Source: an uncultured Selenomonadales bacterium
GTDB taxonomy: Bacteria > Bacillota > Negativicutes > Selenomonadales > Selenomonadaceae
NCBI GenBank assembly: GCA_937915725.1
Contig: CALGGV010000013.1
Span: 1 to 50,245 of the forward strand
Length of the DNA: 50,245 nt
Reading direction: 5' to 3'
The position numbers were made by a program, and so were the translations under genes. Of the stretch, positions 579-11,935 are shown one piece after another. The notes beneath the pieces were generated by a model. That model had not been told where the DNA came from, searched no databases, and saw only the letters and a list, made by a program, of their open reading frames with translations. The stretch's first letter is position 1. Each line of letters starts with the position of its first letter.

Positions 579-1105
579 CATTTGATTTAATTGCGTTTCA
601 GTATGAAGAAATGGTAACCGGCGTTATCAGTATTTCGACTTGAAAAAGAATACGAGAAACAATTAAACCTACAATACAACTACACACAGAAAATTATTTT
701 ACATTTACGCGCAGTCTCTATGGCTAAAAATATTTTCATCAAAGGCGATTTTAAAAAATTCCATTTGGAGTCAGACTTTATAACTTTTAAACAGCCAGTG
801 AAAAATTTTTATCATTCAAAGGTGCACCGTTAAGATTCAACAAATAAAAAAAATCTTTGACGAGAATTAATTCAAAGTTTTGATTGAGCAACTGCGGCAA
901 ATGGAAGACGTTGAAATTATTTTGCGGCAAGACAACGGAACTTTTTCCACGCCACGTTGAATATGCACTTTCATAGTTGGGAAAAATGACGCTGCCAGTT
1001 ATTCAATCGCTACATGAGTTCGGCGTTGAATACAAAAAATTTTTCTCCAAATAAAAAAAGACGCGCAACTTTTGCCACGCGCCGGAAAATTTTATTTGCG
1101 ATTCA

Positions 1106-1861
1106 CTAAGATTTTTTGATTAAGAAAATATCGCCCAATTCTCCACAATCAGCTGTGAAATTTTGAAATTCCCATAATTTTTCAAGCGGATATGTTATTG
1201 CCTTTGAAGTAGAAAGTGCCTCTTCAATCCAAATATAACTTTCATAGAGTTCGCTTAAAAGTTCCATCATTTTTTCGTAAAAACCGGATTTTTGCCATAG
1301 TTGAGGATTAAATTCCATAAAGATTGGCGCAGGATTTTTTCTTAAAATATTTTGTGCTCCAAGTAAAACTTGCGGCTCAAAACCTTCAGTATCAATCCAA
1401 ATATACTTTATATCTTCAGCATTTAAATTTTTTTCTTCAAAATATTTGTCCAGCGAAATAATTTTTACAGTTGCGGTTGATAAACCAGTATACCGTTTAT
1501 TAAGAGTATTTTCTTCAATTAAAGTATTCGCCCCCGGATTAGTAGCTGCCCTATACATTACCTGTTCGCTTTCTTCAATTCCGAGCCCGTAATTTTCAGC
1601 AATAGTTTTTTCTTCCAAATCGTTAAGAATTAAATTCAAGCGCAACATTTTAAAATTTTCGGCGTCCGGTTCAAAGGCAAGCAATTTTAAGTTCGGCGTC
1701 AATTTTTTCAAAAAATAAATTCCTGTCGTGCCGATATTTGCGCCCAAATCCAAAAACAAGCCGGAATTATTGTCAATTTGATAAAATGAATTCGCCATTT
1801 GGTAAAAAAGCCGCATATGAACTTGAGCAAAATTTTGGCGGGATTGATACATGAACCTCAT
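1106..1861 (-). CDS. FkbM-family SAM-dependent methyltransferase domain; probably the C-terminal part of a longer gene split at a poly-G tract
   Basis: LDLGANIGTTGIYF (SAM-binding motif) and IWIDTEGFEPQVLLGA are typical of the FkbM / Methyltransf_21 family. There is no Shine-Dalgarno sequence before the listed ATG. The frame stays open upstream to 1981, directly beside the G8 run. Confidence 0.75.
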   Translation of the reverse strand: MRFMYQSRQNFAQVHMRLFYQMANSFYQIDNNSGLFLDLGANIGTTGIYFLKKLTPNLKLLAFEPDAENFKMLRLNLILNDLEEKTIAENYGLGIEESEQVMYRAATNPGANTLIEENTLNKRYTGLSTATVKIISLDKYFEEKNLNAEDIKYIWIDTEGFEPQVLLGAQNILRKNPAPIFMEFNPQLWQKSGFYEKMMELLSELYESYIWIEEALSTSKAITYPLEKLWEFQNFTADCGELGDIFLIKKS

Positions 1862-1941
1862 AATTTCTATATCTGTTGAAGTGCCAATATAATTTAATCC
1901 TTCTGAAGTTGTGCAAGTAGTATAAGAATTTAACCGCTGCC

Positions 1942-2274
1942 CTAAAGCATAGTGAAAAAGGCGATGAATCTCTGCCCCCCCCTATTTTCCATATTGATTA
2001 GCTCAAAAACTGCGGTAGGGTGTATAATCCAACTTAGAGTATCCAGTGCGTAAATTACACGTTCATCTTTGATATTCAAGGAATGTAACATTGATTTAAA
2101 AAATGAACGTGAATCTTCCTCAAAAATCAAAAGATAGTCCCAATTTTTTTCAGTCAATAAATTTTTATCAGTTGTTGGGGTAAGTGTACCTACAATCTCA
2201 TAATTTTTTTTGATTGTATAATTATCAAGCCATTGTTGAGAAATTCCGGTATAATCGCAAATTAAAATTTTCAT
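1942..2274 (-). CDS. Hypothetical protein; probably the N-terminal part of the FkbM-family gene
   Basis: AGAGGTG RBS 9 nt after the argH stop. The ORF ends 33 nt after a G8 tract (coding strand); a +1 G change would fuse it in frame to 1106..1861. Confidence 0.6.
   Translation of the reverse strand: MKILICDYTGISQQWLDNYTIKKNYEIVGTLTPTTDKNLLTEKNWDYLLIFEEDSRSFFKSMLHSLNIKDERVIYALDTLSWIIHPTAVFELINMENRGGQRFIAFFTML
1975..1982 (-). repeat. Homopolymeric tract, C8 on the plus strand and G8 on the coding strand, at the junction of two ORF frames
   Basis: Counted directly: eight C at 1975-1982. G9 or G6 would join 2274..1984 to 1981..1106 as one ORF of about 389 aa. Confidence 0.9.
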
Positions 2275-2283
2275 TGTGCACCT

Positions 2284-3669
2284 CTATTCAACTTGATTAA
2301 TCCATTCTTTGGCAGATTGAATTTGCATTTTAACTTGTTCGGCTGAAGTGCCGCCTAAAGAATTTCTGTTATTTACGCAAGTTTCGGGCTTAATCGCCTC
2401 AAAAATATTTTCGTCAAATTCACTGCAGAAATTTTTAAATTCGTCAAGCGATAAATCTTTCAAGTAGCAATTTTTATCAATGCAATAATGAACAAGTTTA
2501 CCTGAAATTTCGTGCGCCTGTCTGAAAGGTACGCCCTTTTTAACAAGATAATCTGCTAAATCCGTAGCGTTTGAAAAATCTTCCTCAACTGCGCGACGCA
2601 TATTTTCAGCCTTGACTTTCATACCGTCAACAATCTGCGCGAAGACCGCCAAACTAAATTTAACCGTGTCTATTGCGTCAAAAAGCCCTTCCTTGTCTTC
2701 CTGTAAATCTTTGTTATAGGCAAGCGGCAACGCCTTAACCGTCGTCAACATTGCCATTAAGTGTCCGATAACACGCCCGGTTTTTCCGCGTACAAGTTCA
2801 GGTACATCGGGATTTTTCTTTTGCGGCATCATTGAAGAGCCCGTGCAGTGCGCGTCGTCCAACTCAATAAAATTAAATTCTCTGCTACACCACAAAATAA
2901 TTTCTTCGCTGAATCTTGAAAGGTGTACCATTAAAATTGACGCCGCCGCCAAAAATTCCAAAATATAATCCCTGTCGCTAACCGCGTCCAAACTGTTTAA
3001 ATAAATTGCGTCAAAATCCAATTCGTCGGCAACAAATTTTCTGTCAATAGGTAAAGTTGTACCGGCAAGCGCGCCCGCGCCGAGCGGCATAATATCTGCT
3101 CTGTCATAAACGCCGCAAAATCTGTCTGAATCACGTTGCAACATTTCAAAGTACGCCAGCAAGTGATGTGAAAACAAAATCGGCTGCGCCCGCTGTAAGT
3201 GAGTATAGCCGGGCATAATTACCTCAAGATTTTTTTCAGCCGCGTTGATTAAAGATTTTTGCAGGGAAATTATCAGCGTTTGAATTTCTGTAACCTGCCG
3301 CCTAACATATAAATGCATATCCAGTGCAACTTGATCGTTACGACTGCGCGCCGTATGTAAACGCCCGCCCGCGTCGCCAATTTCGTCTGTCAACGCCTTT
3401 TCAATATTCATATGAATATCTTCAAGTTCAGATTTAAATTCAAATTCGCCGGCTTTAATTTTGTCCTTGATTTTTTTCAAGCCGAAAATAATTTTTGCCG
3501 CGTCATCATTTGAAATAATTCCGCACTTTGCCAACATTTTTGCATGAGCGATGGAGCCGCGTATATCTTCGCGGTAAAGTCTTTTGTCGAAATTTATTGA
3601 CGCTTGAAAATCGTTAATCATTTCATCTGTAGATTTTTCAAAACGTCCGCCCCAAAGTTTTTCGCTAAT
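2284..3669 (-). CDS. argH: Argininosuccinate lyase
   Basis: Fumarate-lyase family signature [11 protein letters not shown], with full-length similarity to ArgH. The conserved N-terminus [13 protein letters not shown] lies upstream of the first ATG (3621). An AAGGAAGGG SD at 3679-3687 sits 9 nt before an ATT codon at 3669-3667, so I propose an ATT start. Confidence 0.9.
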
Positions 3670-10327: not shown

Positions 10328-11935
10328 TTGAAAAAAATTTGTGGAATTTTTTTAACAGCGTTAATTTTTTTTGTGTCAAATACGACAAGCGCGGCGCGGA
10401 CAAAAATTTTATTTATACCGCACGATGATCGCCCCGTTTCCTGCTATCAAACGGCGGAAATTGTCAAAGAAACAGGCGCAGAAATTATAATGCCGCCGAT
10501 TGAACTTTTGGGCTTAAGCGGCTCCAATGAACACCCCGACCAACTTTGGAAATGGTTTGAAGAAAATGCAAAATCTGCGCGCGCGGCGGTAATTGCGTCC
10601 GATTCTTTACTTTACGGCGGTTTAATTCCTTCCCGCAAGCACGAATTTTCACAAGAAAAAATTTCTGCGTGGGTAGAAAATTTTAAAAATATCCGTGAAC
10701 AAAATCCGGAAATGAAATTGTACGTTTTCGCCTCATTAATGAGAACTCCTATGCAAGGAACAAAGGGCGATATTGAAGAGCCGGAATATTACGCGGAATA
10801 CGGCGCAAATATTCACCAATACACCGCACTTTTGGACAAGCAGGAAATTTCACGCCTTAACAACGAAGAAAAAAATTATTTTAACTACCTTGAAAATTCA
10901 ATTCCGCAAAATGTTTTAAATGACTGGATGAATCGCCGTGCTAAAAATTTTTCAGCTACAAAAAAAATGGTAGACTTCACAAGCGCGGGGATTATTGATT
11001 ATTTGATTGTCGGACGTGACGATAACGCGCCACTTTGTCAAACACACAAAGAAAATCGAGAGCTTTTAAATTACGCGGCGAAAAATAATCTGCCTAAAGA
11101 AAAATTTCAATCGCTTGCCGGTATCGACGAATTTAATTTGTTACTGTTGACACGCGCAATTAATGAAATTCGCGGCAAAATTCCTGCTGTTAATGTGCAA
11201 TTTAACAAAGGCGTTGGCGGTAAAACTATTCCCGCTTTTTCTGATGAACCTATAAAAGTTTCTATCGAAGACGAAATTATTATTGCAGGCGGGCAAGCCG
11301 TGAAAAATCCTAAAGACGCAGATTTTGTTTTGTTGGTGAACACCGATATTAACGGCGAAACTTTATGGAGTCATAATCAGCCGCCGAGCGATAAAAATTT
11401 TGTACCAAATTTAATTCCTACCAACAGTACTAATAATTTTGTAGAATTGGTTGAAAAAAATTTAAAAAACGGCTATAAAATTGGAATTGCCGATATAAAT
11501 TATTGTAACGGCTCTGATAACGCACTTATGAAAATTTTGCACGATAAAAATTTACTTTTTAAATTTCAATCTTACGCAGGCTGGAATACTGCCACAAATT
11601 CAACCGGCTTTGCACTTTCGACGGGAATTTTAGCAAAGTACATGATGAATGATTCCAAAAATAAACTTTTGGTGCGCCGTTATCTTGACGATTGGGCGTA
11701 TCAAGCAAATATTCGCTCGATTGTCGGTAATGAATTATTTTATATGCCGCGCGGCGTTATTGCCTATTACCAATTTGATGGCGAAAGGGAATATGTTGAA
11801 AGGCGGGAGACGGAATTAATGCAAAGTTTTGCAGCTGAAAATTTGCCGCCTTATAGATATTTGCGCGGCTTGAAAATTACTAATCCATGGAACAGAATGT
11901 TTGAATGTCACATTGAATTTGGCTCAAATGAATAA
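10328..11935 (+). CDS. DUF4127-like secreted protein
   Basis: TTG start 8 nt after a GGGAG SD gives a signal-peptide-like N-terminus, MKKICGIFLTALIFFVSNTTSAA. ILFIPHDDRPVS and SDSLLYGGLIPSR match my recollection of the DUF4127 family. Confidence 0.55.
   Translation: MKKICGIFLTALIFFVSNTTSAARTKILFIPHDDRPVSCYQTAEIVKETGAEIIMPPIELLGLSGSNEHPDQLWKWFEENAKSARAAVIASDSLLYGGLIPSRKHEFSQEKISAWVENFKNIREQNPEMKLYVFASLMRTPMQGTKGDIEEPEYYAEYGANIHQYTALLDKQEISRLNNEEKNYFNYLENSIPQNVLNDWMNRRAKNFSATKKMVDFTSAGIIDYLIVGRDDNAPLCQTHKENRELLNYAAKNNLPKEKFQSLAGIDEFNLLLLTRAINEIRGKIPAVNVQFNKGVGGKTIPAFSDEPIKVSIEDEIIIAGGQAVKNPKDADFVLLVNTDINGETLWSHNQPPSDKNFVPNLIPTNSTNNFVELVEKNLKNGYKIGIADINYCNGSDNALMKILHDKNLLFKFQSYAGWNTATNSTGFALSTGILAKYMMNDSKNKLLVRRYLDDWAYQANIRSIVGNELFYMPRGVIAYYQFDGEREYVERRETELMQSFAAENLPPYRYLRGLKITNPWNRMFECHIEFGSNE

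Follow-up and report, generated by a model that had tools for sequence, protein, structure and literature searches.

What does a run of eight guanines do between two open reading frames (ORFs) that together look like one methyltransferase gene: does it mark a broken gene, a sequencing error or a switch? The run lies on the minus strand of a 50,245-nucleotide stretch of DNA (contig CALGGV010000013.1 of GenBank assembly GCA_937915725.1, positions 1 to 50,245 of the forward strand) from an uncultured Selenomonadales bacterium of the family Selenomonadaceae. The whole stretch is called the window below, and unprefixed coordinates refer to it. The genome of the window comprises 2.66 Mb in 361 contigs, with 38.7% GC. 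An initial annotation, made from the sequence alone, described the tract as splitting an FkbM-family methyltransferase gene and as a candidate phase-variation switch. That proposal is supported by the tract lengths found in relatives, by the tract being the sole lesion in most split copies, by purifying selection and by a genomic set of G8 to G10 tracts. We give a probability of roughly 80% to the reading that the FkbM locus is a contingency gene, phase-variable by slipped-strand mispairing, and that this assembly shows it OFF. Four features that mark contingency loci were found: a homopolymer of at least about 7-8 within the reading frame, a length that toggles the product, ON and OFF alleles among relatives, and a genome-wide excess of such tracts.

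Reading frames at the G8 tract

The elements of the gene are as follows.

2279..2284, minus strand: Shine-Dalgarno sequence GAGGTG, separated by 4 nt from the true start codon (ATG, 2274-2272) downstream of it, read from the sequence
1942..2274, minus strand: ORF of 110 amino acids (aa), ATG at 2274 and stop at 1942, from the ORF list and its translation; predicted OFF-state product
1975..1982, minus strand: poly-G8 tract (C8 on the plus strand), read from the sequence; proposed hypermutable switch
1106..1981, minus strand: C-terminal FkbM frame of 291 codons, open from 1981 and closed by the stop codon at 1106
1852..1863, minus strand: internal ATG codons 1861 and 1852, gene-caller 'starts' of a 251-aa and a 248-aa FkbM ORF; conserved internal methionines
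1060..1083, minus strand: intrinsic terminator 3' of the FkbM stop codon, from a terminator scan

The minus strand reads ...CTA ATC AAT ATG GAA AAT AGG GGG GGG CAG AGA TTC..., with G8 at 1982-1975, which corresponds to codons 98-100 of a 389-codon gene. Direct reading of the strand confirmed two statements of the initial annotation: G8 puts the 110-aa ORF out of frame with the FkbM ORF, and the FkbM frame is open up to the tract. The sole stop ahead of that frame is the TAG at 1984-1982, whose last base is the first G of the run. When only the run length was changed in silico, the products were 388 aa for G6, 166 aa for G7, 110 aa for G8, 389 aa for G9 and 167 aa for G10; the single protein of about 389 aa that had been forecast for G9 or G6 is therefore obtained with both lengths. 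Judged from these frames, the FkbM domain would be translated only with G9, G6 or some other length that keeps the frame. Residues 1-100 of the 110-aa ORF align with residues 1-100 of 380-394-aa homologues and correspond to the small alpha/beta domain at the N-terminus of the complete enzyme; the remaining 10 residues (QRFIAFFTML) are read out of frame. No other G/C run of at least 7 is present in the 50-kb window.

In the mechanism that we propose, the gene would encode an enzyme of about 389 aa made of the N-terminal alpha/beta domain, a linker and the FkbM methyltransferase domain, and slipped-strand mispairing during replication would add or remove one G. With G9 (or G6, G12), a ribosome starting at ATG 2274 would read through to the full enzyme (ON). 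With G8, it would release the 110-aa fragment ending at 1942 and leave the methyltransferase domain untranslated (OFF), while G7 would give a second OFF frame with a stop at codon 166. From these features we infer switching, and heterogeneity of tract length, within one population.

Alternatively, both ORFs might be expressed without any change in the DNA, either as separate genes or because transcription slips on the G run or translation undergoes programmed ribosomal frameshifting there. Both RNA polymerase and the ribosome can slip at homopolymers, so some low-level read-through from G8 is conceivable. For two separate genes, the FkbM frame would need its own start. It has no in-frame ATG, GTG or TTG between 1981 and 1861, that is, from the tract to codon 141, and in the family alignment the nearly invariant residues T122, Y129, T132, S133 and D135 fall in that interval; the two-gene version therefore fails. 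The FkbM ATG had been described as lacking a Shine-Dalgarno sequence. This holds for ATG 1861. The public gene call of the C-terminal part (P0006, 248 aa) begins instead at ATG 1852, and an AGG 4 nt upstream of it, 3 bases after ATG 1861, could pass as a weak ribosome-binding site. We take ATG 1861 and ATG 1852 to be conserved internal methionines, not start signals, as the alignment indicates (M142 is nearly invariant in the family). The GAGGTG at 2284-2279, in front of the 110-aa ORF, overlaps the TAG stop codon (2286-2284) of the upstream gene argH. No terminator was found between argH and the 110-aa ORF, nor between the 110-aa ORF and the FkbM frame, and promoter-like matches that could serve the C-terminal half showed no excess (8 vs. 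6.4 in shuffled sequences). Expression of both halves from unchanged DNA is thus very improbable, and the tract lengths of the split orthologues, given in the next section, also argue against it.

The protein is identified by its C-terminal frame (P0001), in which a conserved 70-residue segment precedes an FkbM class I S-adenosylmethionine (SAM) methyltransferase domain. This frame matches PF05050 (E=4.7e-17, 63.1 bits, cut-off 22.7) and TIGR01444 (E=4.3e-25, 88.8 bits, cut-off 37.7), and its glycine-rich SAM motif FLDLGANIGTTG (L-D-L-G-A-N-I-G-T) is invariant in the family alignment. No Pfam family matches the N-terminal 110 aa, nor the 70-aa bridging segment. The structure was modeled with AlphaFold 2 (AF2) on P0003, the closest full-length orthologue (67% identical; 100 homologues used), an intact protein and not the split protein of the window. 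The mean predicted local distance difference test (pLDDT) value was 94.7 and the predicted template modeling (pTM) score was 0.90. The model shows a small alpha/beta N-terminal domain, a helix (86-92), a GGG loop (94-99), a second helix (100-114) and the methyltransferase domain. Foldseek returned the FkbM structure 2py6 as the best match (E=1e-10), followed by class I (COMT-type) O-methyltransferases; the overall TM-score to 2py6 is low, at 0.33. Searching the PDB by sequence, with the family profile, yielded no useful hit (E about 0.5); the fold search alone was informative. With profile scores above the curated cut-offs and a class I fold in the orthologue model, the protein is assigned to the FkbM family of SAM-dependent methyltransferases. 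According to the model, the tract would encode a Gly-Gly(-Gly) linker between the two domains; since the GGG lies in an inter-domain loop, the site should be able to tolerate one glycine more or less.

Homologous genes with and without the tract

A protein collection was searched with the conceptual 389-aa G9 product, which gave 387 relatives. Among the best 120 of these, most are single proteins of 380-394 aa with 100% query coverage and 45-67% identity, and the few named ones among those listed trace to rumen Selenomonadaceae and Quinella. Over 100 homologues in all are single proteins of this length that span both halves, and many database 'proteins' of 260-286 aa begin just past the junction. 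The comparison of orthologues, which the initial annotation had put forward as a check, therefore yielded overwhelmingly single ORFs of about 385 aa, not two genes. Since the relatives are mostly single proteins of this size, the predicted two-domain fusion is the normal form and, by the same sequence comparison, the ancestral one. The window organism is a rumen bacterium, and its genus includes 'Quinella sp. 1Q7' in the genome collection.

We then collected homologous loci from family species representatives, extra regions, GTDB contigs and metagenome contigs. At each locus the frame of the N-terminal part was compared with that of the C-terminal part, and the junction DNA was read. About 65 distinct copies from at least 40 assemblies were obtained, and the following counts are over distinct sequences. 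The length polymorphism is one between species and assemblies, which are not independent samples, and all of the genomes are metagenome bins.

Longest junction run G4 or shorter: 0 split, 33 fused
Longest junction run G5: 1 split, 1 fused
Longest junction run G6: 0 split, 1 fused
Longest junction run G7: 3 split, 1 fused
Longest junction run G8: 3 split, 0 fused
Longest junction run G9: 2 split, 7 fused
Longest junction run G10: 2 split, 0 fused
Longest junction run G11: 1 split, 0 fused
Longest junction run G13: 1 split, 0 fused

In rumen Quinella-like Selenomonadaceae the run at this codon position ranges from G5 to G13, and the split state was found solely where a poly-G tract occupies this exact position. 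With tracts of at least G7, 12 of 20 copies are split and 8 are fused, as compared to none of the 33 tract-less copies (G4 or shorter). Changing a single G gives back an ORF of 377-389 aa in 11 of the 13 split copies. Some close pairs differ in state: L090 (G9) is fused and L102 (G10) is split, and likewise L101 is fused and L035 is split. For expression from unchanged DNA, split orthologues (with G7, G8, G10, G11 and G13) would need a -1 shift in some lineages and a +1 shift in others; the intact orthologues require no shift. Because the out-of-frame lengths are mixed, no single programmed signal explains the split copies.

Two side observations were made on these loci. Metagenome contigs L099 and L107 begin exactly inside the G11 or G10 tract of the homologous gene, which fits with assembly graphs breaking at a length-variable run. 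Tandem methyltransferase copies occur in L011 (G102:C226) and L033 (G163:C39), and both L011 copies have an in-frame G9.

The C-terminal parts were placed on a maximum-likelihood tree. Split copies are dispersed over it, with in-frame copies that bear a tract as neighbours, and branches with good support require at least five state changes. For pairs of split copies at dS ~1, the ratio of non-synonymous to synonymous divergence (dN/dS) lies at 0.14-0.31 in either half, around 0.2 overall, the range also seen with intact copies. These ratios indicate that both halves of the split copies are under purifying selection. A dead frame at dS ~1 could not keep 389 stop-free codons, so the genes must have been ON for much of their evolutionary history.

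Several observations weigh against a phase-variable locus. The four closest copies (the G8 of the window, L034 with G10, L009 with G7 and L095 with G5) are all split and form one clade. Two tract-bearing split copies, L116 and L035, have additional lesions, and in L006, whose tract is in frame, codon 79 is a TGA. A look-up of the exact P0006 and ArgH proteins in public assemblies led only to the same project, with an identical G8. All public assemblies of this species are G8/OFF, although they probably share reads, and no ON allele at 90% identity or above was found among the protein-collection homologues. The genome encodes MutS1 and MutL, so a Campylobacter-type mismatch-repair deficiency does not apply. 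Finally, the gene has no glycan cluster or other pointer to a substrate next to it; the neighbours are housekeeping genes (argGH, guaA, others) that differ between species.

The single clade of split copies and the extra stops elsewhere (L035, L116, L006) would also fit a dead gene, in which a fixed, inherited frameshift has pseudogenised a decaying locus. We regard this as a very unlikely explanation. The four closest copies differ in tract length (8, 10, 7 and 5), each is restored by a one-G change, and neither half of any of them shows an additional stop or indel-induced frameshift at a dS of ~1 and with the dN/dS of intact copies.

Long G/C runs in the genome and the genus

The repeats examined in this work were G/C mononucleotide tracts. 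In the genome of the window the counts of G/C runs by length are bimodal: 404 of length 5, 39 of length 6, 3 of length 7, 9 of length 8, 17 of length 9, 3 of length 10 and 1 of length 15. Up to length 7, each additional base lowers the number of runs about ten-fold, a trend that predicts fewer than one run of at least 8; 30 were observed, an excess of about 100-fold. GGG is the rarest Gly codon of this genome (8%), and GGG-GGG-GGG is over-represented (3 observed vs. 0.18 expected). The ~30 long tracts are mostly G on the coding strand and in the first third of genes, and they lie mainly in glycan-modification genes by Pfam assignment. ON/OFF calls of the other 29 tracts were mechanical and partly checked by eye. 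No G/C run was found at any of the 722 contig ends of the genome.

These counts bear on a further explanation, a homopolymer miscount, by which the true sequence would be G9 (or G6), the gene intact and G8 an artefact of assembly or sequencing. The source is a metagenome bin in 361 contigs, homopolymers are classic sites of indel errors, and G9 is the commonest long-tract length in the genome. However, the 9 G8 and 17 G9 tracts indicate that the assembler resolves both lengths, a second public assembly (MEGAHIT, 149-kb contig) is identical over 3.35 kb, G8 included, and 12 other independent assemblies have out-of-frame lengths at the same site. Even if a miscount had occurred, the tract would stay a mutable contingency tract and only the called state would change. 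We consider a miscount unlikely, albeit less so than a dead gene or expression from unchanged DNA.

At the level of the genus, windows of at least nine Gs were found in 75 of 75 genomes (median 29). Elsewhere in the family the median per genus is 0-8, with the exception of one small genus (g23), which has 47-60 windows. Three genomes of the genus (G111, G108 and G156) have 150-370 such windows against the genus median; the excess in these three and in g23 could be due to very long tracts, sequencing artefacts or larger phasomes.

The other tract-bearing genes of the genome are as follows (contig labels as prefixes).

C3, C26, C98 and C149: FkbM genes with G8, C15, G8 and G9, respectively; with the gene of the window, 5 of the 7 FkbM genes of the genome bear a tract
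C67: two neighbouring hexapeptide-transferase-like genes, with the tract after a small N-terminal domain
C254:7490-9365: three tandem DUF1919 paralogues, with G9 in each at about codon 12, after conserved IVWIQGVNQN
C83:10746-10753 (G8) and 10872-10881 (G10): N6/N4 DNA methylase (PF01555, E=2.6e-29), one 313-codon frame
On one contig: DegT aminotransferase, nucleoside diphosphate (NDP)-sugar dehydratase and GT8 glycosyltransferase
Methyltransf_24 protein
Autotransporter-like protein of 898 aa
Several sensor or regulator genes

The FkbM gene on C149 has the layout of the window gene, with an N-terminal domain of ~100 aa, ...NPTGGGG... and the FkbM domain. By eye, the DUF1919 trio comprises one in-frame gene and two out-of-frame ones. 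Both tracts of the C83 DNA methylase are currently in frame; this gene is a candidate phase-variable epigenetic regulator, and possibly governs a phasevarion.

Taken as counts, which form the support for this wider reading, the data make it probable, at a somewhat lower confidence than for the FkbM locus itself, that Quinella-like Selenomonadaceae (uncultured diderm Firmicutes with intact MutS/MutL) possess a genus-wide, Campylobacter-like poly-G phasome. It would comprise tens of loci per genome and center on fast-evolving FkbM and other glycan-decorating enzymes, including the two-tract DNA methylase. Such a phasome in the presence of intact mismatch repair is a more interesting lead than the single locus. 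With ~30 tracts mainly in glycan-modifying genes, a cell population would be a mix of surface-glycan methylation and modification states, and the selective agent may be phage, protozoal grazing or host antibody. If the wider reading is true, switching of surface glycans and of epigenetic state at random would be a main trait of how an abundant rumen commensal lives, and the driver of this switching would probably be phage or protozoal predation, not host immunity.

The neighbourhood of the window gene was also inspected.

2284..3621, minus strand: argH (argininosuccinate lyase), immediately upstream and on the same strand

The order argG-argH-FkbM is kept in several species of the genus, and more distant homologues adjoin guaA or other unrelated genes. 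Between species, ArgH is 83-93% identical and the methyltransferase 55-66% (window 1106-3621 compared with L009/L053, L005/L079 and L012/L055). ArgH being conserved and the methyltransferase divergent, the latter looks like a fast-evolving occupant of a conserved slot: as judged from these identities, it either evolves much faster than its conserved neighbours or is exchanged between lineages. As for its role, the FkbM family, weak RfbT-type hits in some orthologues, the tract set of the genome and the lipopolysaccharide (LPS) genes reported for Quinella (PMC9585023) suggest that the enzyme is an O-methyltransferase acting on a surface glycan. The substrate is probably a sugar hydroxyl of LPS or of another surface glycan, which is a guess.

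Comparison with known systems

To our knowledge, homopolymer phase variation has been worked out almost wholly in host-adapted pathogens (Campylobacter, Helicobacter, Neisseria and Haemophilus). Here the pathogen-type signature, with a G-run peak at 9, tracts in glycan genes and apparent ON/OFF alleles at homologous sites, appears in uncultured diderm Firmicutes that are rumen commensals. The literature searched contained no link of Quinella, Selenomonadaceae or rumen bacteria to homopolymer phase variation, nor of FkbM genes to phase variation, and the Quinella genome paper (PMC9585023) does not mention phase variation. The mechanism is a textbook one; the taxon and the gene family are apparently new.

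If the proposed mechanism holds, many 'frameshifted' or 'split' genes in these bins would be switches, not errors or pseudogenes, and annotation should treat them as such. Quinella populations would probably be mosaics of surface types, which is relevant to phage and protozoal predation and to the culturing or targeting of these low-methane-associated bacteria. With mismatch repair intact, the locus may also serve as a case for the origin of contingency loci, in which three Gly codons of an inter-domain linker would have turned into a G9 tract.

Compared with the FkbM family as represented by 2py6 from Methylobacillus flagellatus, the window protein has the same domain above the cut-offs, the same invariant SAM motif and, in the orthologue model, a fold match, and it adds the conserved N-terminal domain of ~100 aa and the 70-aa bridging segment. 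RfbT/WbeT of Vibrio cholerae is an O-antigen terminal methyltransferase whose loss turns serotype Ogawa into Inaba; rfbT is inactivated by assorted mutations, not through a dedicated homopolymer. By analogy, the gene studied here would likewise be a stand-alone methyltransferase whose ON/OFF state alters one surface-glycan methyl group. Some orthologues have weak precomputed hits to PF05575 (RfbT-type) besides PF05050. PF05575 is not among the matches of P0001 at E<=1, and the likeness to RfbT is one of function, an analogy only.

Closer in mechanism are the contingency loci of Neisseria and Haemophilus, e.g., the poly-G tract of pgtA in a pilin galactosyltransferase (PMC2193922) and the Neisseria phasomes (PMC5953494). 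In both cases poly-G tracts occur in glycan-modification genes despite mismatch repair, and alleles with and without the tract exist. Neisseria and Haemophilus, unlike the rumen bacteria, are mucosal Proteobacteria. They also rely heavily on tetranucleotide and pentanucleotide repeats.

The comparison with Campylobacter is the most extensive. Campylobacter, as far as we know, is without MutS1/MutL-type mismatch repair, and this deficiency raises slippage there. Loss of mismatch repair as the source of tract instability in the window genome was considered and ruled out by the presence of MutS1 and MutL. The present organism further differs in belonging to another phylum (diderm Firmicutes, Selenomonadaceae), in being an uncultured rumen commensal and not a pathogen, and in the gene families involved (FkbM, DUF1919 and hexapeptide transferases). 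In the Campylobacter phasome, 53% of the tracts are G9 and 26% are G10; each strain has 5-81 phase-variable genes, SAM-dependent methyltransferases and autotransporters among them (PMC6321876). The poly-G phase-variable genes of C. jejuni and C. coli include the SAM-dependent methyltransferases Cj0170 and UbiE_3 as well as genes for the modification of capsule, lipooligosaccharide and flagellin glycans (PMC6321876; PMC8437040). The likeness extends to intragenic G/C runs of 8-10 (mode 9) in a low-GC genome, tens of them per genome, with the frame set by tract length; to tracts that are mostly G on the coding strand and near the 5' part of genes; and to targets enriched for glycan-modifying enzymes, methyltransferases, autotransporters and DNA methylases.

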